DNA of 63,491 nucleotides, the filler included, from Chiloscyllium plagiosum (taxonomy: Eukaryota): the NCBI RefSeq assembly GCF_004010195.1. It is 12 parts of 12 records of this genome, joined end to end, with 100 filler letters (N's around TTAATTAATTAA, not from the genome) between each part and the next. Parts side by side here need not be neighbours in the genome. Positions count along the whole stretch, not along the records: positions 57,532 to 60,757 come from NW_025203317.1; 11 more parts are not named here. The stretch is one strand, 5' to 3'. Below, piece by piece: positions 8,078 through 63,462 of the stretch. Numbering within the stretch: position 1 is the stretch's first letter; every line of letters starts with the position of its first letter. The position numbers were made by a program, and so were the translations under genes. Under the pieces are notes generated by a model. The model searched no databases. It was not told the DNA's origin and saw only the letters and a list, made by a program, of their open reading frames with translations.

Positions 8078-8406
8078 CTACACACATTCTGATCTCCTGA
8101 TGCTCTTGCTGAGGGGAGAGGGGAGGGCCACGTGGGTGAGGGCACAGGAGAAGCGAGCATTGGACTCCCAGTCAGACCCAGAGAGGGTCAGCAGGCTGCT
8201 GACACTGTAGGTGCTGTCTGAAGCTCGCAGGTAGTTGCTGGTCTGGACCCCGTCCAAAATGACTGCACCATCCTTCTTCCACTGCACCTCCAGCTCATCG
8301 GGATAGAAGTGATTGGCAAGGCACACCAGGGTGGCAGTGCCCTTGGCATTGACCTGCTCTGGGGAGGGGGGCAGCAGGGTCAGCTTGGGCTGAGAGTTCT
8401 CACGGC
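8078..8406 (-). CDS. IGKC: Ig kappa-type light-chain constant exon (SRENSQPKLTLLPPSPEQV...LSKSIRRSECV*)
   Basis: Acceptor tttcag|GC at 8406 in phase with J. C1-set motifs (TLVCL, FYP, W, YSVSSLL, FSCALTH) and a near-terminal Cys. TAG at 8078-8080. Confidence 0.95.
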
Positions 8407-8679
8407 CTGAAAGACAAGAGAAACAATTTTAATCCCTGCCATTCAAATGGATTTCAACTCTCAGAACGTTCATTGGCAAAACAATCCATTTGAACATTTG
8501 CAAACAATACTTACAAACCTGCGAAAAGAATGGACATTTATTAAACTTTCTCTTTGATGTTGGGCATCGAAGTCCCCCACCCAGAGTACAATCTGTGCCA
8601 TCAATGCCCTCAGTGTTTCCTCCAAGTGTTCAACGTGGAGGAGATGTTGATGTATCAGCCAAGAGAGGGCAGTGTGTTT

Positions 8680-14332: not shown

Positions 14333-14701
14333 AGGTCAGTGAGATCAGAGACTGGGACAGGGAGCCAGAGCTCACATCAAACTCTGCCCGTGTCTGTCAC
14401 ACTGAGACTGGCAGGAGGCTACTCACTGATTTCACTCCATGCTGCAGGAATGGGACCACAGGCTGTAAATGGACAGAGCTCCTCCACACGGTGAGTAAAA
14501 CTTACTGACTTATATCTTACTGCTTAAAGGGGGCAATGGAACTCAAGAAATACAGCTGGATACCCTGTTAGACACAGTGCTTCTCAATAAACCATTTCAT
14601 TCACTGCAGCTCCCCACCAACACCTTCAACAATTCAGCATTTGTGTTTTAGAAAGTTTCAGTATTGAAAAGGTTAATAACGGAGGATTGAGGTTTACTTA
14701 C

Positions 14702-15067
14702 TCAGTCTGAGCTTGGTTCCTTTACCGAACATAAGAGGGTAGCTGTCATACTGCTGACAGTAATAGTCAGCGACATCCTCATTCTGAACGTTACTGATTT
14801 TCAGGGTGAAACTGGTCCCTGACCCACTGCCGGTGAACAGGGTGAAACTGGTCCCTGACCCACTGCCGGTGAATCGATTGGAGACTCCTGTGAATCGATC
14901 TGTTGCGTCATAGATCAGGAGAGAGGGTTTCTGACCTTCTCGCTGCTGGTACCATGCAATGTTATCGTAAATGTCTTGACTGGCTGTGCAGGTGATGGTT
15001 GCAGTGTGGCCCAGTCCCACTGACAGCACCGGGGGAGACTGGCTCATGATGATGTCCCCACTGATAC
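14702..15067 (-). CDS. IGK: Ig kappa-type V-J exon, joined in the genome ([20 protein letters not shown]...WYQQ...[26 protein letters not shown])
   Basis: Acceptor cctcag|GT at 15067. Canonical Cys, WYQQ, YYC and FGxG motifs lie in one open frame with no RSS between V and J. Donor A|GTAAGT at 14701. Confidence 0.95.
14802..14873. repeat. Perfect 2 x 36-bp tandem duplication in V FR3 ([12 protein letters not shown] twice)
   Basis: cagggtgaaactggtccctgacccactgccggtgaa at 14802-14837 and 14838-14873. Confidence 0.95.
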
Positions 15068-15251
15068 CTGAGGGGTCAGAGAAACACAGTAAAGTCAGAA
15101 CTGTCACAGAAAGAGCCTGTCAAATGAGAGATTGTTGGAGACACTGAGCTTTCCTCTGGTTTCAGCATTTTCCCTTCAATCACAAGTCAGTGGAATTGGA
15201 GTGAAATGGAGAGCAGCTAAAGATTCAAGGTGGAAGGAGAGCGATTTGTAC

Positions 15252-37399: not shown

Positions 37400-37693
37400 G
37401 TGTCCGCTCTCAGATCGTGCTGACACAGCCTGAATCAGTAAGCCGGGGGAGTCTGTCAGACTGACCTGTACAGTGAGTGGGTTCAGCCTGGATGACTACT
37501 GGATAAACTGGGTGAGACAGGTCCCTGGGAAAGGGCTGCAATGGTTACTTGATTACAAGCAAGGTCAAAACAGTGATTACGCACCTGGAATTCGAGGCAG
37601 ATTCGTCCCTTCAAGAGGCTCCACCACAGTCGCCTACCTCGACATCAACCAGTTGAGAGTGGATGACACTGCCATGTATTACTGTGCAAGAGA
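37400..37693 (+). pseudogene. IgW-type VH segment with a 7-bp FR1 deletion (frameshift)
   Basis: GAATCAGT^AAGCCG versus the paralog GAATCAGTTGTGAAAAAGCCG gives an early TGA. The downstream frame still has C, WVRQ and YYCAR. Confidence 0.88.
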
Positions 37694-37732
37694 CACACTG
37701 AGAGCAAGTGGGGCTGGCCTGGTACAAAAACT
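37694..37732 (+). other. V 3' 23-RSS (CACACTG-23-ACAAAAACT)
   Basis: Heptamer variant, exact 23-bp spacer, near-consensus nonamer. Confidence 0.9.
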
Positions 37733-38070
37733 CACTGAGAGAATCGACAGTCAGGGGAATCAGTGAAAAGGGAGGAACTATCACACACCACCCCTCAGCT
37801 ACCAGCACAGCTTCATTCCCATCCTGACTGTGTTGGGATCTGCTGGTCCTGGGAATGGGGAAATGGGATTATTCACTGCTGATTCCTGGCACTGGCGACA
37901 TGATGGGAAAAGGAGTTCGGGACATGAACAAAGATCTCTCTGGACTGAAACAGGGGAGAGGGCAGTCCCTGGGCAGGGAGAATCAGAGCAGCATTGCTCA
38001 TTTGGAGCAGTGTCAGTGTGATCGGGTTAAATGTGAAGTGACTGGACTCAGTGTCAGGGAAAGGGGAGGA

Positions 38071-39409: not shown

Positions 39410-40504
39410 CCTCAAAATATCTGAAGAATGTAGTCTAAGATCTGAATTGTTTCTTATTTTAAAGCTCGATGGGAAATGATGTGTTCCAGATACAACGCAG
39501 GTGGTCAAACAACTCGACATTAAGCAAAACACAATTTACTTAAACGCTGTAATTAAAATACAAACAAAAGAACAAGAAATTTAGAATAACTTAACAATTG
39601 AAAAATGCAACTGAATACGGTACCTATTACTAATTAACTGCTGCAATATTGTAACATCCTATAAACACCTTGCCAAAAAGGTAAATTCAGACACAGATTC
39701 TTACATGCATTTCTCCAACCCAGGAGGAAATAATATCAAGAAAAAAATGTAGACAGTAGTAGCCAGGTGACACTCACTGAAGCTGCCAACTCTTTTGAGA
39801 CCGCAAAAGCTTCTGATGTAACTGAAAAAAACCAAACTGAGAAATCTGGATCTGTGAGAGCTGGCCACACCCATTCAGACTGCTTCTATTGTTCCAACTT
39901 AAAAAAACACCTAGAGGCCTCACAACTTGTTTACCTCAGTCATCATCATCAGCAAGTTTGTTGCCTCTGCCTTACAATCTCTCTTCAAAACAAAAACTAG
40001 GACACCAACAACCTTTTAAAGTGGCAGCATCATCACATTATGAGTTAAAGAAGCTTCCAATCCCTATCCTCAGAACATGAGGTCTTTCCAAAGGGTTTCA
40101 GATGCGAGGTAATTGTCCATCGGAAGTTGAAACTTCCCAGACAAATCCCATTCAGTGAGTCAGGAATTCTGAGGGGTCCAGACCCTCCTCTCTCAGGGAG
40201 TGTCCAGTCTCTGACTGTCTGGCTGCTGGACAATCTGGGCCCATGTCTGGTGCTGAAGCCTGGAATACAAGGGAATCTTCTTGTAATTCTAGTGAGATTA
40301 TTCCAGAGGGAAATCAACGAGTACTTCACCAATAACAGGGATGTGGGAATCTGGAATCCCCAAAACGCTCTAGAAGCTTGGGATTCGGAGACCCTTTCAA
40401 ACTTAGAATTGAAATCTTTAACGCAATTGAGACCAACATGACATATTAACACAGAGATCAAGGTGGGTAGTTGCAAACAAGGAAGTGAAAAAGTGTCCTC
40501 GAAA
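39410..40504. repeat. LTR-like/interspersed block downstream of the MHC-I alpha3 exon, shared with 62225-62960
   Basis: Collinear near-identical sequence in scaffolds 4 and 12; the repeat family call is tentative. Confidence 0.55.
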
Positions 40505-40725
40505 NNNNNNNNNNNNNNNNNNNNNNNNNNNNNNNNNNNNNNNNNNNNNNNNNNNNNNNNNNNNNNNNNNNNNNNNNNNNNNNNNNNNNNNNNNNNNNNN
40601 NNNNNNNNNNNNNNNNNNNNNNNNNNNNNNNNNNNNNNNNNNNNNNNNNNNNNNNNNNNNNNNNNNNNNNNNNNNNNNNNNNNNNNNNNNNNNNNNNNNN
40701 NNNNNNNNNNNNNNNNNNNNNNNNN

Positions 40726-40951
40726 CCCACTGATAGAGCTGGGCCTCTGCCAGGCTGCTGTGTTCAATCTGACAGGAGTATTGATCCTCATCCCCAGCAT
40801 TGATCTCAATCTCTTTCTGGATCTGCTGGGTCCCATCGTGGTTCGGTCGTACCCCCGAGGAATGTGTCTCAGACATGACCTCTCCATTCCTTAGCCAGGT
40901 CACCTTGATGTCGACAGAATCAAACCCAGTGACCAGGCAGGAGAGAGTGAG
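40726..40951 (-). CDS. MHC class I alpha3 exon, partial and open (LTLSCLVTGFDSVDIKVTWLRNG...GVRPNHDGTQQI...YSCQIEHSSL)
   Basis: Class I alpha3 signature PNHDGT and both C1 cysteines; truncated by gaps at both ends. Confidence 0.85.
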
Positions 40952-41051: not shown

Positions 41052-41446
41052 TCAATCATCGATTTCCATCCGAAGTCAATCTCCATGATTTCGTTGAAAA
41101 ATGGCCGACGCTTGGATTCTGGCTTCTTCACGTCTCCCGTGTGTGAGGCAAACGGGAACTTCTCGGTNCTTCTCCTAACTGTGAGCTCCAGTGAATAAAT
41201 CGCAAGCAGTAAGTTTACAACTGTCGTCTGTTCAATCATCAATTTCCATCCGAAGTCAATCTCCGTGATTTGGTTGAAAAATGGCCGACTCTTGGATTCT
41301 GGCTTCTTCACGTCTCCCGTGTGTGAGGCAAATGGGAACTTCTCGGTGATGAGTCCCTGATGGTGAATGGTTCAGCAGCGCAGTCTATACCTGCCAGGTC
41401 ACTCATGGAGAGAACATTCAAAATAAAAACATCACCGCACTCCAGG
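41052..41446 (+). pseudogene. IGHM: IgM Cmu2 exon with an in-frame TAA (41196-41198) and frameshifting deletions near 41355-41365; a second partial copy at 41052-41167
   Basis: LLLTVSSSE*IAS...[21 protein letters not shown]...[13 protein letters not shown]...YTCQVTH; donor CAGG|GTAAG at 41447. Confidence 0.82.
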
Positions 41447-43411
41447 GTAAGAGACACACACTGAGAGAGCTACAAATCATTCAGAACTCTGATGTGAATC
41501 AAACATACTAATTTATCAGGCGTAGTAAACAGCACGGTACAGCTTCTCATTTCCCAACATGCCACGTATCTCATATTAGTTTGAGTATTACATTAACATT
41601 GCTCATATTTCAGCATTTTGGCAAGTCAGAAAAGCATGTTTCCTCTTTGTTGAAGAAAGATACATAGACAGTGAGCTTTGCTAAATAGTTTGTTGCCTCA
41701 CCATGCTGGGAGTGGCATTCCGAGTGCTGAATCCTTGCCTAGTAGTCGCTTCAAGGATAAGTTAGGGGGTGGAGGGGGATATTGGACAGATATCTGATTG
41801 AAACATAGAAAATACTGAGAGACTTAGGTCGAGTGAACGTGGAATAGATGTTTTGACTGGTGGGCGAGACTAGAACCCAAGGACACAGTCTCAGGGTCAA
41901 AGGTGCACCGTTTAGAACTGAGATGGGGAGGAATTTCTTCAGCCAGAGGGTGATGAGTCTGTGGAACTTGTTGCTGCAGAGGGCTGTGGAGGCCCGGCCA
42001 TTGTGTTTACTCAAGCCAGAGATAGATCCGCTCTTGTTTAGTACGGGGAGAAGGCAGGAGAATGGCTTTAGCCCGAAAGATCGATTTTCCTGCTCATCGG
42101 ATGCTGCCTGACCTGCTGTGATTTTCCAGCATCATTCGGATCTGAACTCTGGATTGACCGAACAGCCTTATTCTGATCCTCTACCTTATGATGTTGGGGT
42201 CTCAAAATGACGTGGTTAAAATATGCAGTGACCCTGACTTGAAAATAAATCAAAATGCGTTCAATGCTTCATTCCCTGCTCAGGAATGACCTGTTGATTG
42301 GACATTGAACGACATCGATTTTTATCTGGTACTGAGCTCTTTAACTTCATTTATGGGATCAGACCACAGACCCAAGTGGGTGTCACATTTGATGAACTGG
42401 GATAAACGTGATCTCACTGAGCTTCTTTAAGATGCTCTCTGTAATTAGTGGATGTGGCAGGAGAATAAATTCTGGTGGGAATGCTACAATAGCGATGAAT
42501 GAACGAGGAACTCGAGACAGGCTGATTTAGCCTGGTTTGGGGTGGCGATGTTTACACAGTGAGTAGTGGATGTCTATAAAATTAGTGTACATTTCCATCG
42601 CGTTTGTAGATTAATTTAAGACGTTTTTGTTTTTATTTTCTCCCCTGCTCTATGAAAAAAATAAAAACTGCAGCTTGGTAAATAAAGTGAAAGTACAGAC
42701 CAGTTATGAACTAACTGAATAGAGGGAAAGACTTAAGGAAATGGGTGTCCTTCTCGATATCCAATGCTGTACTCAATGTCTTGTTTTCAGATCTACTCCA
42801 AACACAGCCCATGAGGAACAATGACATAAATTAGAGAATGACATCACACCAATAACGCAAAGTATTTTTGATCACGTTAAATATAATGAACAGAATTTCC
42901 ATGGCTGTTCACCGCTCCTGTAACACTTTAGAACTCTGCAAAGAGAATAATTATTATTTCTTATAATTTTTCCAAAATTTGGGATATGATTTGGCAGTCA
43001 GCGTGACCAGCAGCACTTGCCCCCAAGGGTGAAGAACATGGAAATGAACTCATTATATTCAGATTACTCTTGTCACAAGTATCAATAGATGGTCTTAAGT
43101 GAGAGACAAACTCCGAAAGAAAGGTAATTCCATGGGTTACATGATGGTATCTTCGATGATTTTACTTTTTTCACAGGTTTCACTTGTTACAAAGCCAGTG
43201 TTCTTCAGGAATAATTACACAGGGTATGATATAGGTAATCACAAATACTTTCACAGATCAAAATACATCAACAATAGTAAGCATCGTTTCAGCAATAGTT
43301 GGATTTGCCATTTTGAAGTTGGTGTCTTCACCCTGTGAAGGAGGAATCTGAAGATTGGCTGTTTATATCAGAAAGGGGCATTTTTCATTGACTTTGATTT
43401 TTGTTTCATAG

Positions 43412-43720
43412 AAGATACCGAGTGGCACATCAACACCGTTAAAATCCTCCCACCGCCAGTAGAACAAGTCTTACTGGAGGCGACGGTGACGTTAACCTGC
43501 GTTGTGTCCAATCTTCCTTCTGGAGTCAACGTGACCTGGACACAAGAAAAGAAACCTGTGAAATCAGAGATTGCTAACCAGTCTGGACAGAATCCCGACA
43601 GCGTGATCAGCAAATTCAACATTTCTACTGAAGCCTGGCTGAGTGGCGTTACTTTTGAATGTGTGGTGTACCATCAGAATCTACCGACTCCGCTGAGAGA
43701 CTCCATCCACAAGGAGAAAG
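43412..43720 (+). CDS. IGHM: IgM Cmu3 exon (...[34 protein letters not shown]...[22 protein letters not shown])
   Basis: Open 309-bp phase-1 exon with AG/GT boundaries and shark Cmu3 motifs. Confidence 0.9.
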
Positions 43721-44161
43721 GTGAGCGGTGAGATTAAAGCACAAAGCATCCTATATGTAATGCAGATCCAGTTACATCAATGACAGGCTTTGATTGGTAA
43801 TGAACAAACACCGTTGGGGGCATTAATGATGCATCTGAAGGCAGGATAGCTAGGTAGCTGATAAAGAAAAAGATGGACCAAAGGATTAAGTCAGATAAGG
43901 TGGGAAGAAGCCTGAGTTGTGATGTCACCATCAGCAATGTCAATTGGACAGAATGCCCTTGTTGTGGGCTGGAAACATGGAGGCAACTTTCACATTAAAC
44001 TTTACTTTTTTTAATGAACAGAATGTGTACCATACTGCTCCTTTAGAAAACAAAAGTGAATAAATCCCAAATTAAACATTGCTATTTTAATATTTAGTGA
44101 AACTGTGATATTGGTTCAGGATGTTTTTGGTTGATTTATATTTGTCTCAAATATTCTGCAG

Positions 44162-44547
44162 TGATTAATCTGCTGGAGCCATCAGTGTCGGTCCTCCTTC
44201 CACCAACAGAAGAAATCTCCGCTCAGAGGTTTCTCTCCCTGACCTGTTTAGTGAGAGGTTTCTCCCCCCGAGAGATCTTCGTCAAGTGGACAAACAATGA
44301 CAAGCAGGTGAATCCCAGTAACTACAAGAACAACGAGGTGATGGCGGAGAGCGACAACATCTCCTTCATCGACAGCCTGTTATCCATTACAGCGGAGGAG
44401 TGGGCCAGCGGTGCTTCTTACTCCTGTGTGATGGGACATGAAGCGATTCCACTGAAGATCATCAACAGAACAGTCGATAAATCCAGCGGTAAACCGAGTT
44501 TCGTAAACATTTCACTTGCACTGATGGACACTGTTAATTCATGTTAA
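44162..44547 (+). CDS. IGHM: IgM Cmu4 plus secretory tail (...[28 protein letters not shown])
   Basis: Acceptor tgcag|TG, internal TM donor AGCG|GTAAA at 44489, AATAAA overlapping the stop (44546-44551). Confidence 0.9.
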
Positions 44548-45249
44548 TAAAAATCTCAAAGTTGCATTTAATAATTCAACAGAAGTAATGAAGCGTTTTT
44601 TTCCCTCCAGTTGTGAGTTACATACTGAATTAGTTGTTTCCCACTCGGACTTATTAACAGGTCTAGGACGAGTGTCTTGTGCAGTTAATGTTCTCTGCTC
44701 AGATACACCCTGGGTCAGAGGCAGAGTAAAGCTCTCTCATTGCAGGATTCCGCCAAGTACCTTATCCATCCTAAATCCCTCTGTGACAACATCTGACAAT
44801 GTCCATTTTACGTCAAGGGTAGAGCACGAGTTTTGAACTTAGTGTTCTTGATTNNNNNNNNNNNNNNNNNNNNNNNNNNNNNNNNNNNNNNNNNNNNTTA
44901 ATTAATTAANNNNNNNNNNNNNNNNNNNNNNNNNNNNNNNNNNNNNNNNNNNNATCTTTTATGATTATAAGTCAAATAAAATGGGAAGAAACCTGGTTTG
45001 TGTTTTTAACATCAGCAATGACAAATGTACAGGAAGACTTAGTTGTGGGTTAGAAACATGGAGTCCACTTTCGAATTAAACTCTTTACTCTTAATGAACA
45101 GAATGGATATCATTCTGCTGGTTTAGAAAATGAGAGTGTATAAAGCCCAAATTTTAAAACAAAACTGACATATTTTAATATGTAGTGACATTGCAATGTT
45201 GATTCTGGATTTTTATAGTTGATTTATATTTGTTTCAAATATTCTGCAG

Positions 45250-45593
45250 GAGAAAAGCTACTGGAGCCATCAGTGTGTATCCTACTGCCACCCACAGAAG
45301 ACATTTCCGCTCAGAGGTTTCTCACCTGTTTAGTGAGAGGTTTCTACCCCCGAGAGATCTTCATCAAATGGACAAACAATGACAAGCCAGTGAATCCCAG
45401 TAACTACAAGAACACCGAGGTGATGGCGGAGAGCGAGAACACCTCCTTCTTCATGTACAGCCTGTTATCCATTACAGCGGAGGCGTGCGCCAGCGGTGCT
45501 TCATACTCCTGTGTGGTGGGTCATGAAGCTATTCCACTGAAGATCATCAACAGAACAGTCGATAAATCCAGCGGTAAACCGAGTTTGCACTGA
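45250..45593 (+). CDS. IGHM: Second IgM Cmu4 exon with the secretory tail truncated by a 16-bp deletion (...SSGKPSLH*); possibly a pseudogene
   Basis: Aligns with 44162-44547. It also has a 6-bp deletion before the first Cys and EEW changed to EAC. Confidence 0.82.
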
Positions 45594-47644: not shown

Positions 47645-47982
47645 TCCTCCCCTTTCCCTGACACTGAGTCCAGTCACTTCACATTTAACCCGATCACACT
47701 GACACTGCTCCAAGTGAGCAATGCTGCTCTGATTCTCCCTGCCCAGGGACTGCCCTCTCCCCTGTTTCAGTCCAGAGAGATCTTTGTTCATGTCCTGAAC
47801 TCCTTTTCCCATCATGTCGCCAGTGCCAGGAATCAGCAGTGAATAATCCCATTTCCCCATTCCCAGGACCAGCAAATCCCAACACAGTCAGGATGGGAAT
47901 GAAGCTGTGCTGGTAGCTGGGGGGTGGTGTGTGATAGTTCCTCCCTTTTCACTGATTCCCCTGACTGTCGATTCTCTCAGTG

Positions 47983-48021
47983 AGTTTTTGTACCAGTCCA
48001 GCCCCATTTCGTCTCACTGTG
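47983..48021 (-). other. V 3' 23-RSS (CACAGTG-23-ACAAAAACT)
   Basis: Consensus heptamer, 23-bp spacer. Confidence 0.92.
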
Positions 48022-48319
48022 CCTCTAGCACAATAATACATGGCGGTGTCATCCACTTTCAGATTTGTCACCTGTAGGTAAGATGTGGTCGTGTCCTTGG
48101 AAGGGGTGAATCGGCCTTGAACTCCTGGTCCGTAGTACTTGCTACTTTCTGAATAATAGTACAGCAGCCATTCCAGCCCTTTCCCAGGGACCTGTCTCAC
48201 CCAGTGCATGCCGTAGCTGCTGAGGCTGAACCCACTCACTGTACAGGTCAGTCTGACAGACTCCCCCGGCTTTTTCACAACTGATTCAGGCTGTGTCAGC
48301 ACGATCTGAGAGCGGACAC
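48022..48319 (-). CDS. IgW-type VH segment, intact ([43 protein letters not shown]...DTAMYYCAR)
   Basis: Open frame, acceptor cacag|GT, canonical V residues, RSS immediately downstream. Confidence 0.92.
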
Positions 48320-48441
48320 CTGTGAATAAAAGAGAAACAGAAGAGAGCTCACTTTAATAAGCCGGTCAGATAAACAGAGAGTCCCAGAATCTGGGAAGAA
48401 GCAGCCTCACTGTGTGGGGAGAAAGCCCTGGGAACTCTCAC

Positions 48442-52040: not shown

Positions 52041-52392
52041 CATTCAAATTATGTAGCTAATAATCTCAAAATTGACTGTCAACTAATGCTACTGGCAACA
52101 TACACTACAATGGCCACAACTTTCAAATATTTATTATTCGTGAACAATTCAGAGATTGATCAACTTTTTTTAAAATTTTCATCTTATTTCTAAACTCTTT
52201 ACATGTGTGTTGCTTCCCTACTTCCTCTTGTAGTTAATATTAAATATACTCACTTTTTAAAATCAGGATACTCTAATGAAATTGAAAAAATATCAGTTCA
52301 TTCAGGTGATTAACCAGGGCTGAGTGCAGCCACACACAGACACGGACACAAGGGCAGACACAGACACACAAACATCGTGCCCAGTCCCTTAC

Positions 52393-52658
52393 CCCACTGA
52401 TAGAGCTGGGCCTCTGCCAGGCTGCTGTGTTCAATGTGACAGGAGTATTGATCCTCATCACCAGCATTGATCTCAATCTCTTTCTGGATCTGATGGGTCC
52501 CATCGTGGTTCGGTCGTACCCCCGAGGATTGGGTCTCAGACATGACCTCTCCATTCCTTAGCCAGGTCACCTCGATGTCTACAGGATCAACCCAGTGACC
52601 AGGCAGGAGAGAGTGAGCGGCTTGTCCTGACCATTGGGCTCCCTCCTGGAGGTAAACA
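52393..52658 (-). pseudogene. MHC class I alpha3 exon with a 1-bp deletion (GGG TTG ATC versus GGG TTT GAT) and its 5' end replaced by a minisatellite
   Basis: Aligns with 63068-63346; donor TGGG|GTAAG intact. Confidence 0.85.
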
Positions 52659-52671
52659 CTGCAGCACGGGA

Positions 52672-52990
52672 GAATGGACTGAGTGGAGTGACCCAGAGGT
52701 CAGTGCTGGGGAATGGACTAAGTGGAGTGACCCAGGGGTCAGTGCTGGGGGATGGACTGAGTGGAGTGACCCAGGGGTCAGTGCTGGGTGATGGAATGAG
52801 TGGAGTGACCCAGAGGTCAATGCTGGGGATGGACTGAGTGGAGTTACCCAGGGGTCAGTGCTGGACAATGGACTGAGTGGAGTGACCCAGAGGTCAATGC
52901 TGGGGGATGGACTGAGTGGAGTTACCCAGAGGTCAATGCTGGGGGGTGGAGTGACCCAGGGATCAATGCTGGGAGATGGACTGAGTGGAA
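52672..52990. repeat. 39-bp minisatellite, about 8 copies
   Basis: Unit ggactgagtggagtgacccaggggtcagtgctgggggat. Confidence 0.92.
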
Positions 52991-54943: not shown

Positions 54944-55272
54944 CTACACACATTCTGATCTCCTGATGCTCTTGCTGAGGGGAGAGGGGAGGGTCACGTG
55001 GGTGAGGGCACAGGAGAAGCGAGCGTTGGACTCCCAGTCAGACCCAGAGAGGGTCAGCAGGCTGCTGACACTGTAGGTGCTGTCCGAAGCTCGCAGGTAG
55101 TTGCTGGTCTGAACCCCGTCCGAAATGACTGCACCATCCTTCTTCCACTGCACCTCCAGCTCATCGGGATAGAAGTGATTGGCAAGGCACACCAGGGTGG
55201 CAGTGCCCTTGGCATTGACCTGCTCTGGGGAGGGGGGCAGCAGGGTCAGCTTGGGCTGAGAATTTTCACGGC
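54944..55272 (-). CDS. IGKC: Second Ig kappa-type CL exon (paralogous cluster or allele)
   Basis: 329-bp open exon differing from 8078-8406 at only two residues (L/S, A/T), with the same acceptor. Confidence 0.93.
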
Positions 55273-56617
55273 CTGAAAGACAAGACAAACAATTTTAATC
55301 CCTGCCATTCAAAGGGATTTCAACTCTGAACATTCACTGGCAAAACAATCCATTTGAACATTTGTATTCAATACCTAACAGACCCCATAAAAGGACAGGG
55401 CCTTTTAAAATTGCTTCTTGGGATGTGACTGTCACTGACAGGGCGAGAATTTATTGCCCATTCCTAATTGCCCCTGAGATGGTGATGGTGAAAAAGAAGG
55501 GGCAGTTTTGGATCATTCTTTAGGGAATGAATGTGGGCAGCTGGAAGGGCTATCAATGGGGGAGCATTTCAGTGACAGTGATCGGAACTCAGTGAGATTG
55601 AGAGGAGGGATGGAAATGGAGAACCATGGAGCAAGTGTAAAAGTTTTCATTTGGGAACAAAACCATTTTACTAAACTGGGCAGGGATTGGATAAAAGTGG
55701 GCTGAAAGACAAAATGCAAGGGTGAAATTTACCAGGACCTGAGGAAAGCAAAGAGCTGACAGGATGAAATGTGTCCAAATGAAGTCAGGGAAATCCCAGT
55801 GATTTTTTAGAATCACAGAAAGAACAAGAGAATGAAGGAATGTATGAGGCCCATTCGAGAGCAGGAAGGGAACTTGTGTGCAGTGGTGGAAGATGGAGCA
55901 ATGGTTCCTCATGAAAACTTTTGGTCTGTTTTCACAAAAGAGAGGGACATACATAGCAGTAACTGTAGTTCAGGAGGAGAACTGTGCAATATTGGAACAG
56001 CATCTTTCACATCTGAAAGACTCCCAGTTCATCCAATGAAAAGAAAGATCCATGCTGTCCTAAAGATATTTGCAGACCGTGTGGGACTTGTTTGAAATGT
56101 GGTCACTGTTGTAATGTAGGAAATGTGCAAGCCAGATTGTACACAAGATCCCACAAGCAACAGTGAACCAAGGAACATTTTTGAGTGCTGTTTGTTCAGG
56201 AATAAGTATCAGCCTGAATATGATTCAAAGAGAAAGTAACTAGAACAGTTGGATGGAAAATGAGGAAATGAAAGTTAAAGGAGAAGGGAGGAATACTGGT
56301 TAGCGATGGAATTGATTGTTACCAGAAAATAAAAGGAAAGGGACAGAGTATTGTGAATGTCATATTGTACTGAGGAAACTTAAAAGTGCAGGGAAGAACA
56401 ATATAGAACAAGCTTAAAGGTGTTGTCTCTTAATACATGAACCATTCGGAATAATGTTGACAAAGTGGTACCACACAAACCAAGGGAAATCAAGTTTGCG
56501 AGGAGTTTAAACTAACTAAAGAAGGTAGGAGCTCAGGAGAAGTTATTAAAGTATCCAGACCAAGTAATAGGATTGAGGGTATGGAAAGGATCAGGAATCG
56601 AACTTGAGGCACCGCAG

Positions 56618-56865: not shown

Positions 56866-58555
56866 AAAGGAGATAACTATGAGAAGGAGGCAGTGAGTGC
56901 ATGACTGAGGGTGTTGTACTTCGATGCATTAAGTATATGAAACAAGGTAAATGAGCCTGTGGCTCAGGGACGTGGCTGCAAGGGGATCAGGGCTGGGAAC
57001 TAAATATCCACGGATGCACATCCTATTGAAAGGAAATGCGAGGGGATAGTGGGTCAAGTGTGAAGGAGGAACTGAATGTAATCCTTGTTAGTCAGGAAAT
57101 GGTTTTGGGAGACTGATGGTATCAAAACTTGCTAAGTCCCCATGGCCTGATGCTCTACCTGTCGACTCTGACAGAGTTCCAGTGGACTGGACAGTATCCA
57201 GTGTAACCCCACTTTTTAATAAAAGGAGGGAGAGTGAAAATGAGGAATTATACATGAGGAAAACGCTGGAGTCAGTTATTAAAGATACAATAACCGAGCA
57301 TTTGGAAAGCAGTGATAGGATCGGTCTAAGTCAGCATGGATTTACTAAAGGGAAATCAGGCCTGACACATCTTCTGGAAGGTTTTGAGGATGTGATCCGT
57401 GGAGAATGGACAAGGCTGAATCAATGGACAANNNNNNNNNNNNNNNNNNNNNNNNNNNNNNNNNNNNNNNNNNNNTTAATTAATTAANNNNNNNNNNNNN
57501 NNNNNNNNNNNNNNNNNNNNNNNNNNNNNNNGGTCAAAATTCTGAAACTCCTTTCTTTGCAACATTACTGGTGCAGGTATACCTCCGTGGGTTGCCGTGG
57601 TTCAAGAAGACAGCTTACTACCATCTTCGCAAGGGCAATTGGAAATAGGAAATAGAATATTAAATCGATGGAAACGCCGACATTGCATGTACACCTTTCT
57701 TTGAAAAAAGTTAGCTATTTGGCGTCTTTTGAGGGGCGGGGTGGAGCAAACAAAGGAATTCTTGAATTTTGGATGCTTTTTTTTATTGAAGTTTTTAACA
57801 GATGCGGGTGGAGGTTGGATTGATCTCAAATGTAAACGTATCTTCGGACAGATGGGTAGAGGTTTAAATTCCAAGCTCAATAATCAAAACGAGAAAGAAA
57901 AAAGAAAGGGAGTGAAAAACAAATTGGATAATGCTTGTATTTGCGATAGTTTCACGCTAATGATAGAAACTGAACGCCCCATTTTTATCCAACTTCAATC
58001 GTCGTTCATTGCAACCAAAATACAAAGACACGACCAGTCCTGGACTTGAGATTGAGGCTTTTGATGAGACCGTTATAATTAAATGCAAACTGTGGATTGA
58101 GAATGTCTGGTGGATCCATTGAGTAGACTCTGGATTTCTGGTATCCAATTGACGAAGTGATTGTTCAATGGACAATAAACTGACGGTGTCTGGTGGAACT
58201 GGTGATTATTTAGTATGGACACTGACTAACTGTGACCACTGTTTATTCAATACAGATTCTGAGCTGCGTGTGCAGAGCATGTGCCTCGTCCAACATTTTG
58301 TCTGTTTTGTGCAGGGTTTTGTCCACTCCATTTATCTCCACTTTCTATCTGAATAAAAAAGGAGCGGTTTAACAAGCATACATGGATTTCAAGTTTCAGA
58401 ATTGGAACTTTATTTGTTCACATGAATAGGGTGATTCGAAAAACATTCCCCCCAAAATTCAAAAAACGTCTATGCCTTTTGACAGGCTGTTCTGTCTTCT
58501 GTCCAACCCAAAGACAAATTCCGATATTGATTTATTGAATGTTATTGTGTTCCAG

Positions 58556-58837
58556 TGCCACCAACCCCGCTGAAGATAACCCGCCAGTACTCGCCCTTCC
58601 TCGCTCTCCTCTGCACAACAGCTGGCTTCTTCCCGGGGCAGTTTGAACTCATGTGGTATAAAAATTTCTCCGAAATCACGTCTAACATCAACATCAGGAA
58701 AATCCTGAACAAAGAGGGTTTATTTCAAGTTTCCAGCGAGCTCAGTCTTCCGGAGAGGGAGTCAGTCTATACCTGCCAGGTTTCTCACATCGCACTCAGC
58801 ATCCCGGCAAATATCAGCGACAAAACTCCGAATCACG
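58556..58837 (+). CDS. C1-set Ig domain exon of an unidentified membrane protein (SIRP/B7-H6/tapasin-like class)
   Basis: 282-bp phase-1 exon (ttccag|TG ... CACG|GTAAG) reading LLCTTAGFFP...WYKN...NKEGLFQVSSEL...YTCQVSH. Confidence 0.85.
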
Positions 58838-58974
58838 GTAAGGGTCACCGGTGTTCCATTTTTCATATACAGAGGAACCTAACATCTGTCATCAATATTA
58901 AAATACAAGGTTCCAATCCGTTCCCGGATGCTTGGCGCTTCAGCCAAAGTTAAATACAGATTTGAAGTGTTATG

Positions 58975-59695
58975 ATTCCTGTTGAAGAGCTTTTGCCCGA
59001 AACGTCGATTTTCCTGCTCCTCGGATGCTGCCTGACCTGCAGTGCTTTTCCAGCACCACTCTAATCTAGACTCTGGTTTCCAGCGTCTGCAGTCCAGTGT
59101 TACGAAGCCGTCAGTTCAAAATTTACCACAAACAGCAACCGGCCTGCATTGCATCTGCACTGTGTTCGGGAACCAGCATATCTATAGCCAGTTTCCTCGT
59201 CTGATGCGAGGTATCATCCACAAAACTGATGCTAAACACTTTCTTGCTCTCGCGCTCAGCTTGTCTTTCTCTCTCTCTTTCTCTCTCTCCAATTCACTCT
59301 TGGTCTTATTGGAAAAATCAAAGTTATTCTTTCTCTCTATATTCACCTCCCACTTTCTTGTCCTCCTTATCTCTGCCACTGTAATGCGTCCAACATCTGG
59401 CGCCACTCGCTCTCCATTCACTTCCTGTGGATACCGTGGTTACTGCCTTGGTACGCACCTCAGTTGGTCTGGTCGCTCATTTCTGAAGGCCGTAGGATCA
59501 ATTCCCCTTCCGATCCCACGCACAATGGTTTGACAGAGCCCCGCAGTGCCGAGGCAGTATTGCTGAGTTGAAGGTCCGGTCTTTCTGGGGCTAAAGTGGG
59601 TACTATAGATGCTGGAGATTAGAGTCAGGATTAAAGTGGTGCTGGAAATACACAGCAGGTCAGGCAGCATCCGAGGAGGAGGAAAATCTGCTTGA
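58975..59695. mobile_element. Two inverted MER6/Penelope-terminus-like elements (58975-59095 and 59605-59695) in the C1-TM intron
   Basis: ttttcctgctcctcggatgctgcctgacctgc...ttccagcaccact and its reverse complement. Confidence 0.6.
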
Positions 59696-60597
59696 ACCAA
59701 TTGTCCCTTCACGCAGGAGCAAAAGATCCAGCACGCCATTTTGCAGAACAGCAAGTAAGCCCTGCGTGAATACTTCTCCCCCGAAATCCAGATCACAGAA
59801 TCAGATGGTCTGATCACTATCACATTGGACTTTCAAAAACAGTGTTCATAATGGATGCTACAATACATATGTTACAACAGCGACTCTACTACAAAGAAAT
59901 AGAAATAGACAACAAATGCTGCCTCAGCCACCGATACCCACATCCCATGAGCCAATAGTAAAAACCGATGCATTCATCCAATCTTTTGGCACATGTTCCT
60001 TCGGCAAGATTCCGCTTGGCAGATTTGTTAGTAAAATTAGATCACGTGGGATTCAGGGAGAGCTGGACAATTGGATGCAAAATTGATTTGACGGGAGGAG
60101 TCAGGGTGGTGGTAGAAAGTTGATTTTCGGACTCGAGTCTTGTGACCAGTGGTGTCCCACATGGATCAGGGCTGGGTCCAGTGCTTGTTATTTATCTAAA
60201 TGATTAGGATAAGAATATAGGAAGCATGGTTAGTAAATAATGGGCACATGGTCAATTCTTTAGCCTGCTTGAATGACGTGTGGAACGAGGAAGAGATCTT
60301 TACACCTGGTAAATACGCGCTAATTGGCAGAGGGATTATAAACAATGCTGTATATTCATTAAGTCAAATACGGTCATTAATCTGAATACATGCTGGTGTT
60401 TTCGAAATGGATAGGCGCTTTGTGGTTCAATTAGTTGGTCGGTACAGGAACAACGGAGCCTTGCGTTCGGTGATAAGCAGCAGGAATGTGGCAGAGACGG
60501 ATTTAATGTAAGTGTAGTCTGTTACCTGGAGTTGTCGAATACGTTGTATCATCTGCTTTTAAAAATGCTAACATTCCACTTTCTCTGTCCCCTGTAG

Positions 60598-60711
60598 GTA
60601 ACCAAGACCGCACTTTCTCCTACGCCTTAGTCTTTGGTTGTGCTGCAGGCGGGATTATGATTTTAGTTCTGGGAATTGTCTTCAAGAGGTGCAAATTCGA
60701 CAGAACAACTG
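60598..60711 (+). CDS. Transmembrane exon GNQDRTFSYALVFGCAAGGIMILVLGIVFKRCKFDRTT
   Basis: Polypyrimidine tract plus tag|GT acceptor, 114-bp open phase-1 exon, 21-aa hydrophobic run then basic stop-transfer KRCK, donor G|GTGAG. In phase with the C1 exon. Confidence 0.8.
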
Positions 60712-60941
60712 GTGAGACGTGAATTTTTCCTGATTCTGTCCTGGGCTTTCACCTCTTNNNNNNNNNNNNNNNNNNNNNNNNNNNNNNNNNNNNNNNNNNN
60801 NTTAATTAATTAANNNNNNNNNNNNNNNNNNNNNNNNNNNNNNNNNNNNNNNNNNNNAGACAGACACTGAATGGAATGGGAGAGCGGTTTTATAGATCAG
60901 TGAGGTTAGATTAGAACATGGAGCAAAACTGAAATACATAC

Positions 60942-61215
60942 CCTTCCTTCTGAAATACTCCTTTCCAGCTTCCAGACATCTCTTTAACTGTTCAACAAAC
61001 TGTCCATGCAGCTGTGTTTCCCAGTAATTTGTCCAGGATTCATCGGAATCCCATTCCTCTTTTGTCTTCACTGCAAAGTGATTGGTTACGATCCATCTCA
61101 TTCTGTCTGGGTCTAAACTGATATAATCCTTTCCATTGGCTCCAAATCTCATCGATCCCTTCACAGAGCCACCATCACTGACCTCAAGTAATAAACCATT
61201 GAAAGATGTGAATTC
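60942..61215 (-). pseudogene. MHC class I alpha2 exon with an apparent 2-bp deletion near its start
   Basis: GIHIFQWFIT^EVSDGGSVKGSMRFGANGKDYISLD...W...W...EQLKRCLEAGKEYFRRK. 274 bp (not a multiple of 3), with acceptor and donor intact. Confidence 0.85.
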
Positions 61216-61897
61216 CTGTCACTAACCCAATAAGAATCAATGATCAATAATTAATTCTTAACTGAAACTGCGAAACAATCTGATCAAAGGTGAAGGGGGA
61301 TCCTGTATCAGACCCAGGGGGAGGGGGTTACACACGGTGCTAATCCCCAGGGCCTGTGCTGTCAGAGGGTCCCAGACTCAGGCAGCACTGCCCCTTTCTC
61401 CAGTGGCTGCCTCTCACCTCAACCTGGAGCAGATAGGGAATGGGCTCTCTGATCCGGGTCAGAATTCCAGCGCTCACATTCCCACTGTCCTGGAACGACA
61501 GCCCCGTTCCATGTGGTCATTTATTTTGATCACAGGCTGCATTCTGGGGGATGTAGTCCATGTCTGTCCGTGTCCACTCTGTCAGCCTCCCACAGGCACT
61601 GGCCCACGATCGGACTCTGTATGTTATTTACAAGGACCCTCTCCCTGCGTGGGGCTGTGCAATCTCTTCCCCTCCTGGCGGAATGGAGATGAGGGTAAAT
61701 TTCTTTAAATTGCCTATTACCTCGTGTACAACTTCCACAGATTATAGCAATGTTTTTAATTTTGTTCTAGTTGTTCAATCTGTTCATCACAGATTACACA
61801 GAAGGGGTTGGGCTTGTGTGAGGCAATTGTCATATCCCAGAATGCTCAGCTGGTCCATAGGTTTCACAATATATCCATACAACCTGATTCAAAAGTA

Positions 61898-62124
61898 TCT
61901 CTCCATCACGAGTGGACCGTGACCATTCCAATATCTCTCCATCACGAGTGGACTGTGACCATTCCAATATCTCTCCATCACGAGTGAACCGTGACCATTC
62001 CAATATCTCTCCATCACGAGTGGACCGTGACCATTCCAATATCTCTCCATCACGAGTGGACCATGACCATTCCAATATCTCTCTATCACGATGGACCGTG
62101 ACCATTCCAATATCTCTCCATCAC
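61898..62124. repeat. 36-bp minisatellite, about 6 copies
   Basis: Unit atctctccatcacgagtggaccgtgaccattccaat. Confidence 0.92.
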
Positions 62125-63067
62125 NNNNNNNNNNNNNNNNNNNNNNNNNNNNNNNNNNNNNNNNNNNNTTAATTAATTAANNNNNNNNNNNNNNNNNNNN
62201 NNNNNNNNNNNNNNNNNNNNNNNNAAAAAGGTAAATTCAGACACAGATTCTTACATGAAGTTCTCCAATCCCGGAGGAAACAATATCAAGAAAAAAATGC
62301 AGATAGTAGTAGCCAGGTGACATTCTCTGAACCTGCCAACTCTTTTGAGACCCCAAAGGCTTCTGACGTAACTGAAAAAAACCAAACTGAGAAATCTGGA
62401 TCTGTGAGAGCTGGCCACGCCCATTCAGACTGCTTCTATTGTTCCAGCTTAAAAAAAAACTCCAAGGCCTCACAACTTGTTTACCTCAGTCATCATCAGC
62501 AGCGGGTTTGGTGCCTCTGCCTTACAACCTCTCTTCAAAACAAAAACTAGGACACCAACAACCTTTTAAAGTGGCAGTATCATCACAATAGGAGTTAAAG
62601 AAGCTTCCAATCCCTAACCTCAGAACCTGAGATCTTTCCAGAGGGTTCCGGATACGGTTTGAAACTTCCCAGACAAATCCCATGGACAATCTGGGCCCAT
62701 GTCTGGTGCTGAAGCCTGGAATACAAGGGAATCTGCTTGTAATTCTGGTGAGATTATTCCGGAGTGAAATCGATGAGTACTTCACCAATAACAGGGCTGT
62801 GGGAATCTGGAATCACCAAAAGGTGCTGGAAGTTTGGAATTCGGAGACCCTTTCAAACTTAGAATTGAAATCTTTAACACAATTGAGACCAACATGACAT
62901 ATCAACGCAGATAACAAGGTAGGTAGTTGCAAACAAGGAAGTGAAAAAGTGTCCTCTAAATAGTTTCATCTGTCACATGTATATACACACATACACACAG
63001 ACACAGACACAGACACAGACACATAGATACAGACACACAGACACACACACACTCTCCAGTCCCTTAC

Positions 63068-63346
63068 CCCACTGATAGAGCTGGGCCTCTGCCAGACTGC
63101 TGTGTTCAATGTGACAGGAGTATTGATCCTCATCCCCAGCATTGAACTCAATCTCTTTCTGGATCTGATGGGTCCCATCGTGGTTCGGTCATATCCCCGA
63201 GGAATGTGTCTCAGACATGACCTCTCCATTCCTTAGCCAGGTCACCTCGATGTCTGCAGGATCAAACCCAGTGACCAGGAAGGAGAGAGTGAGTGGCTTG
63301 TCCTGACCATTGGGCTCCCTCCTGGAGATGAACACTTCAGGCTGAA
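63068..63346 (-). pseudogene. MHC class I alpha3 exon with first Cys changed to Phe and a CGA>TGA stop (63189-63191)
   Basis: VQPEVFISRREPNGQDKPLTLSFLVTGF...SSGI*PNHDGT; 279 bp with intact splice sites. Confidence 0.88.
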
Positions 63347-63462
63347 CTGTGATGGGAAAGGGTGAAACCACAAACAATAGACAGACACTGAATGGAATGG
63401 GAGAACGGTTTCATAGATCAGTGAGGTTAGATCAGAACATGGAACAAAACTGAAATATATAC

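Follow-up and report, generated by a model that had tools for sequence, protein, structure and literature searches.

Two Chiloscyllium plagiosum exons as the C1 domain and anchor of a probable inhibitory-type paired receptor with proposed SIRP-alpha-like working

Two exons of Chiloscyllium plagiosum were identified that encode the C1-set domain and the membrane anchor of a leader-V-C1-TM (transmembrane) receptor. This receptor probably belongs to the inhibitory members of an apparently clustered family of paired receptors in cartilaginous fishes, with likely SIRP-alpha-like working. We put the probability of this reading at roughly 75%. The exons lie in a stretch of 63,491 nucleotides from assembly GCF_004010195.1, referred to here as the window. 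That the protein is an inhibitory paired receptor is quite probable, and a shared ancestry with the SIRPs specifically is evenly balanced. The window copy would be SIRP-like in its working and is not filed as a SIRP, because its gene model lacks the V-C1-C1 layout of SIRPs and the ectodomain tree does not join the family to them.

The C1 exon comprises 93 full codons with the two canonical cysteines, the tryptophan and two N-glycosylation sequons, NFS and NIS, which correspond to residues 162 and 211 of protein P0001. It matches the Pfam C1-set family with an E value of 2.5e-11 and 44.2 bits (cut-off 21), in agreement with the preliminary description of an intact C1-set exon with both sequons. 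The TM exon is preceded by a pyrimidine tract and AG and is followed by GT. Direct reading confirms the features previously assigned to it, namely a GCAAG motif of the GxxxG type, a core without charge and a cysteine immediately C-terminal of the TM segment. The two exons had also been thought to splice in phase; both junctions are of phase 1, and the joined 396 nt form an open frame. The donor that ends the TM exon had been taken to imply further cytoplasmic exons, as is the case in the counterpart P0005, whose TM exon is 95% identical over 40 residues and which continues into the first two motifs of a tyrosine tail. The coordinates are collected in Table 1.

Table 1. Features of the exon pair and its surroundings, in positions along the window.
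Feature	Position	Strand	Description
C1-set Ig exon	58556-58837	+	282 nt; AG upstream, GT downstream; phase 1 at both ends
Intron, GT..AG	58838-60597	+	1760 nt; absent from one X1 contig; splice sites read
Stalk, uncharged TM and juxtamembrane exon, long-tail (inhibitory) type	60598-60711	+	114 nt; phase-1 donor
Fragment containing both exons	57532-60757		From the spacer map; ends 46 bases past the TM exon
High-copy repeat in the intron	58975-59095		Very deep pile of records 90-95% alike, with loose ends (X1, X6, X8)

The 131 residues encoded by the joined exons are identical to residues 127–257 of P0001 (RefSeq XP_043540988.1), a C. plagiosum entry named 'uncharacterized LOC122546281, partial', the C1 exon alone showing 100% identity. 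P0001 is located on an unplaced scaffold of 8,400 bases. Its gene model consists of a leader, a V-set and a C1-set domain, each with its Pfam match, and a TM segment, and ends where the fragment ends. The V-C1-TM organization that had been proposed from the exon pair is thus present in the matching model. No V, leader or tail exon was found in the fragment, where tblastn of P0001 and of P0006, a full-length epaulette shark relative of 357 aa, returned these two exons only.

The preliminary description had made its reading depend on transcripts that join 58837 to 60598. This joint is found in one contig from one of four runs, a 263-base contig of run X1 that skips exactly the intron and has 9 other letters over about 235; X1 is RNA by guess and bears another organism label. 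The contig comes from a close relative and is not proof for the window copy. A second X1 contig enters the upstream intron by 42 bases, which shows that X1 also contains unspliced RNA or DNA. Run X6, about 2/100 of which was read, gave repeat reads only, and run X8 showed no exon cover, a result that carries no meaning for expression. The repeat within the intron, of which a second copy lies near 59593–59690, appears to be SINE-like.

The organism label of the sole spliced contig would also suit a different interpretation, in which the window copy is not a separate working gene but either an allelic haplotig of LOC122558646 or a duplicate of it that is truncated or silent. The partial state of the database twin and its unplaced scaffold point in the same direction, as does the similarity of P0005, which lies on a 73-Mb chromosome and shows 92% identity across two thirds of the C1 domain, in addition to the resemblance of the TM exons. 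We consider this rather unlikely, given that both exons are open, their splice sites are intact, and the leader and V domain of the twin are intact as well. An allele would still belong to the same family.

A search with P0006 as the query returned 1663 candidates, 23 of which pass an E value of 1e-5; each of these 23 is assigned by name to a shark, a ray or the chimaera (elephant shark). Searching 1.84 billion representatives with a profile of 16 members gave 120 clusters at E ≤ 1e-30; the 150 highest-ranking matches include 144 new ones, with taxa named for 20 and assumed for the remainder. Eleven named new clusters pass the family thresholds (C1 ≥ 58 bits or V ≥ 53 bits, < 620 aa), ten chondrichthyan and one from the coelacanth, and a second coelacanth protein scores lower. 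With isoforms kept, 116 proteins pass these thresholds. V-C1 is the usual ectodomain of the members, with P0035 as one member that has V-C1-C1. The gene models of P0005 and P0012 contain a duplicated TM exon or a duplicated TM and tail, which may represent tandem exons or merged neighbours. The genes of the family are already present in RefSeq as automatic models under at least six conflicting names (SIRPA-like, SIRPB1-like, tapasin-related, NCR3LG1-like, CD276, H-2 class I and uncharacterized). We found no description of the family in the literature, although subscription papers on SIRP-like genes of sharks or birds, and supplements, could hold one; the earlier impression of a poorly characterised shark family is consistent with both observations.

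C. plagiosum has at least four loci (P0001, P0003, P0005 and P0018/23), which sets a lower bound for the copy number that the preliminary description had listed among its checks. Within any one species of shark, ray or chimaera, the chromosome-placed named members have one shared sequence length (73,167,256 bases in C. plagiosum, 66,547,297 in Heptranchias with 9 proteins, 99,651,266 in Heterodontus and 18,121,395 in Callorhinchus) and close accession numbers. Read without positions, these lengths and numbers suggest one cluster per species. The MHC of C. plagiosum is assigned to Chr37, and tick labels in a supplementary figure of the same source place Chr36 near 30 Mb (PMC7677710, in the parts available). 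Because the placed paralogs are found on a 73-Mb chromosome and the MHC on the much smaller Chr37, linkage of the family to the MHC, a further check named at the outset, appears unlikely.

The V domain of the family ends in a J-like strand, G-x-G-T/S, in 82 of 92 V domains, a feature that is also displayed by the SIRP rows; a J-like V end is listed as a SIRP feature in part of PMC11599192. A phenylalanine or tryptophan precedes G-x-G in only three of the 92. The J motif that had been anticipated is therefore present as a strand, and the FGxG form of antigen receptors is not. In the gene models the V domain and the J-like strand are already joined. No heptamer-nonamer (RSS) pair was found in the fragment, outside which the V exon lies. 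A rearranging Ig or TCR gene was discarded on the basis of this joining and the 3/92 count, and an MHC class I or class II chain because the domain that precedes C1 is V-set and not peptide-binding. In these features the gene resembles neither a rearranging Ig or TCR nor MHC, in line with the original statement. The cysteines of strands B and F of the V domain are separated by 54–59 residues in the 13 members examined (13/13), vs 62–66 in four SIRP rows. The identity of the C1 domain to SIRP domains is only 25–33%, compared with 26–28% for Ig and MHC domains found in the window.

The phylogenetic position of the family was analyzed with V+C1 trees, in which three of the five SIRP rows (P0118, P0145 and P0167) carry labels assigned by the authors, the Ig rows were made by joining V and C artificially, and curated B7-H6, TAPBPL or TCR sequences are absent. 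In the first tree (44 rows, 208 columns), the family is recovered as a single group (99/97), to which two coelacanth proteins on long branches attach (97/81). A second tree, with three Ig rows added and 16 of the 44 earlier rows dropped (31 rows, 211 columns), recovers the family with the coelacanth proteins (93/84) apart from the SIRPs, which join Ig (95/85) and not the shark family. Constraining the family, the coelacanth proteins and the SIRPs to one group costs 3.0 log units and is not rejected (p-AU 0.112); joining the family to Ig has the same cost and p-AU value, and joining the coelacanth proteins to the SIRPs gives a p-AU of 0.149. The phylogeny called for in the preliminary description yields a group of its own for the family, and does not join it to the SIRPs, a grouping that is not rejected. 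A tree of C1 alone (113 rows, 100 columns, quick method) has no resolved backbone. In the coelacanth Latimeria, P0166 and P0135/P0192 are V-C1-TM proteins that group near the family, one with a TM lysine and a short tail and the other with a two-tyrosine tail.

These trees speak for a separate VJ-C1 lineage of cartilaginous fishes and the coelacanth, whose SIRP-alpha-like tail arose independently or by exon shuffling, and whose members would be paired receptors and not SIRPs. The support values given above for the family, alone and with the coelacanth proteins, set it apart from the SIRPs, and the single C1 domain, the short V domain with its 54–59 spacing and an arginine near the start of the TM segment in some members agree with such a lineage. 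The constrained groupings with the SIRPs, as noted, are not rejected, and the likeness of the tails, described below, exceeds the motifs themselves. We regard this alternative as a serious candidate that falls a little short of even odds. A bolder reading, to which we give somewhat less than an even chance, is that the SIRP line is as old as the jawed vertebrates and that a large two-domain VJ-C1 chondrichthyan cluster, with a SIRP-alpha tail and arginine-bearing partners, was the source of the three-domain SIRPs of tetrapods.

The structure model has a mean pLDDT of 70 and a pTM of 0.54. The C1 domain is modelled as a C1 fold, with the best match, to an MHC class II beta-2 domain, at a Z score of 14.5 and an rmsd of 1.8 over 94 residues. 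Matches to the V-C fold are generic, and the Z scores of SIRP-gamma, B7-H6, TAPBPR, butyrophilin and Fabs differ by no more than about 1. Searches of the PDB by sequence and by fold both place UrIg2 and antibodies on top. SIRP-alpha is seventh of 4919 sequence matches, and its three domains add to the score.

The top position of UrIg2, the best match both by sequence profile (E 4e-26) and by Foldseek, relates to an earlier suggestion of kinship with antigen-receptor precursors. The exon pair would then belong to a non-rearranging gene similar to UrIg or PRARP and nearer to Ig and TCR than to the paired receptors of innate immunity, and the germline V domain with a J-like strand followed by C1, as well as the tree that joins the family to Ig without being rejected, would fit. 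A long tyrosine tail is, however, untypical of antigen receptors, and the family has one. Moreover, the identity to UrIg2 is only 14–20%, with an rmsd of 10–11 and a score that sums several domains, and the F/W count reported above is low. UrIg and UrIg2, the non-rearranging VJ-C1 genes of sharks, share with the family a germline V followed by C1, but UrIg2 has 10 Ig domains and an antibody-like dimer (PMC12227049, in the portion available), whereas members of the shark family carry two domains followed by a signalling tail. We judge a precursor of this kind improbable; SIRP-alpha and the paired receptors are the closer working model.

Even less probable, to the point of being very doubtful, is a V-C1 ligand or chaperone of the B7-H6 (NCR3LG1) or TAPBPL type. 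Both of these proteins have the same V-C1-TM outline, several members of the family are automatically named tapasin-related or NCR3LG1-like, and B7-H6 (Z 13.1) and TAPBPR (Z 12.5) are among the tied fold matches. In sequence, B7-H6 and TAPBPR are outside the best 60 of the 4919 PDB matches, in contrast to the seventh place of SIRP-alpha, and the other, automatically named V-C1 proteins constitute a separate group (100/98). The conserved four-tyrosine tail and the arginine-type partners suit a receptor; to our knowledge, B7-H6 and TAPBPL have no four-tyrosine tail and no activating partners. Among the other proteins retrieved, P0140 (lizard), P0152, P0168 and P0147 show V-C1-TM followed by more C1 domains past the predicted TM, which is an odd layout or a modelling artefact. 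P0093 (turtle), P0130, P0137, P0150 (lizard) and P0159, with automatic names such as titin-like or FcR-like, combine several V domains that have J-like ends with a tail bearing two or three tyrosines.

A loose motif pattern assigns at least four tyrosine motifs to 28 of the 116 proteins, isoforms included, and two or three motifs to 25. An arginine near the TM start combined with a short tail is found in 10; the short tails without arginine (28/116) and the proteins without TM (25/116) may in many cases be partial models. The close relatives P0006, P0007, P0011 and P0031 have four tail tyrosines arranged in two motif pairs, the first motif of the closest relatives being without the canonical hydrophobic residue at position -2. 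The window copy would be expected to carry the same four-tyrosine tail, because its TM exon matches the long-tail type and has a donor at its end. The idea that the receptor might bear ITIMs is thereby strengthened, directly for the close relatives and by extension for the window copy.

The seven arginine rows of the V+C1 tree do not form one group, and three of them are sisters of long-TM forms from the same or a close species (100/100). The members of three pairs, P0011/P0021 (V 88%, C1 91% identity), P0016/P0024 (68% and 87%) and P0001/P0003 (91% and 86%), have like ectodomains and opposite signalling ends in one species, a feature of paired receptors. We infer from this pattern that these are probably paired receptors that have been kept alike by recent duplication or by gene conversion.

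The tails of the family resemble that of SIRP-alpha in the spacing of the tyrosines, which is 23/13–14/22–23 in shark members, 24/17/26 in the SIRPA-like proteins of bats and birds, and 23/15/26 in that of lungfish; the bat, bird and lungfish proteins were returned by the deep profile search itself. Scored against a profile of 18 tails from the shark family, five tails of bat and bird SIRPA-like proteins reach 46–49 bits and the lungfish tail 37; seven tyrosine tails of unrelated proteins reach 8–16 bits, and the short tail from the coelacanth 18. As the original controls have fewer motifs, six unrelated tails were doubled to four tyrosines at three spacings, and these 18 controls score 12–31 bits. 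Controls of the shark-tail profile overall reach at most 34 bits; they are few and drawn from the same search as the SIRPA-like proteins. When sequences were shuffled with the four motifs kept, the real score was reached in 0, 0 and 3 of 300. The lower scores of doubled and shuffled controls imply that the resemblance to SIRP-alpha, judged on these few controls, probably extends past the tyrosine motifs. A profile comparison with bird SIRPA gives 99.6% probability over 351 columns that cover V, one C1, TM and tail, with the four tyrosines in register. The top two Atlas feature matches are SIRP-alpha clusters at 0.96 (200 and 201 of 256 features), followed by Ig kappa-like and CD33-like clusters at 0.94.

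SIRP-alpha and the SIRP family (SIRPA/SHPS-1; tetrapods and lungfish) share several features with the shark family. In both, a J-ended V domain is followed by C1, the TM segment is uncharged, and the tail, about 110 residues long, carries its four tyrosine motifs as two pairs. Both also include short-tailed partners whose TM is charged, and the copies are clustered, apparently so in the shark family. The ectodomain tree, by contrast, does not join the two. SIRP-beta uses a central TM lysine. The putative activating forms of the shark family differ in that the charge is an arginine near the TM start, and SIRP-beta pairs with DAP12; SIRP-alpha has a V domain and two C1 domains, as opposed to the one C1 and shorter V of the sharks (PMC12975943 for both SIRPs, in the sections available). 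Paired receptors of the LILR/KIR/CHIR type also have inhibitory and activating forms with near-identical ectodomains, and the short forms of LILRs have a TM arginine (PMC4016189, in part); their domains are of the C2 type, unlike the V and C1-set domains found here.

By analogy with SIRP-alpha and PD-1, the V domain is anticipated to bind a cell-surface ligand. The tail tyrosines would then be phosphorylated, allowing SHP-1/SHP-2-type phosphatases to dock on the two tandem motif pairs and to dampen leukocyte activation. The short arginine forms, whose outer domains are nearly identical, would associate with an ITAM adaptor to activate the cell, and may act as counter-receptors where microbes exploit the inhibitory form. 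In receptors of the LILR/KIR/CHIR type, such a TM arginine pairs with FcR-gamma. A 2014 screen reports no FcR-gamma chain in cartilaginous fish (PMC4016189, excerpted text), and SHP phosphatases are present in sharks (PMC12151841, excerpted text).

Paired Ig receptors as such are known; what is apparently undescribed is a V-C1 cluster of two-domain proteins that combines a SIRP-alpha-like tail with arginine-type partners. The available portions of the main texts of PMC12227049, PMC10751288, PMC7677710 and PMC12151841 contain no mention of SIRP. One supplement of PMC3964593, in its accessible part, likewise lacks SIRP and six adaptor and phosphatase gene names, and may lack an immune note altogether. 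A 2026 survey dates SIRPs to tetrapods; its dates are coarse, as it puts PD-1 in mammals (PMC13262535, in part), whereas PD-1 is found in sharks (PMC12151841, in part). The 2014 screen did not detect LRC-type genes in sharks (PMC4016189, in part). A large family with inhibitory and activating members, spread over the three chondrichthyan lines, would close this LRC gap and name candidates for self-recognition in sharks. The age of the SIRP-CD47 checkpoint would become testable by synteny and binding, and a germline VJ-C1 family would be added to the debate on the origin of antigen receptors.

The remainder of the window consists of other fragments. Eleven identical spacers, N44-TTAATTAATTAA-N44, are located between 28022 and 62224 and delimit 12 fragments, most with Ig or MHC exons, whose order across the spacers is not genomic. 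Linkage of the exon pair to the Ig and MHC pieces was dismissed on the grounds that spacers separate the fragments. Near-identical constant exons of the Ig light chain are found in different fragments at 8081–8428 (-) and 54947–55294 (-), and a light-chain V frame at 14697–15119 (-) runs straight into a J-like end, with a germline-joined look and a short duplication in framework 3. Ig heavy-chain V and constant exons, secretory-tail exons included, lie at 37434–37763 (+), 47952–48353 (-), 41353–44544 (+) and 45219–45590 (+). An alpha-2 exon of MHC class I (Pfam MHC_I) and three similar exons of alpha-3-like type occupy 60858–61218 (-), 40421–40951 (-), 52313–52699 (-) and 62973–63410 (-), and at least one of these is seemingly split across reading frames. 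A tandem repeat with a unit of about 33 bases is located at a fragment end (61860–62124).
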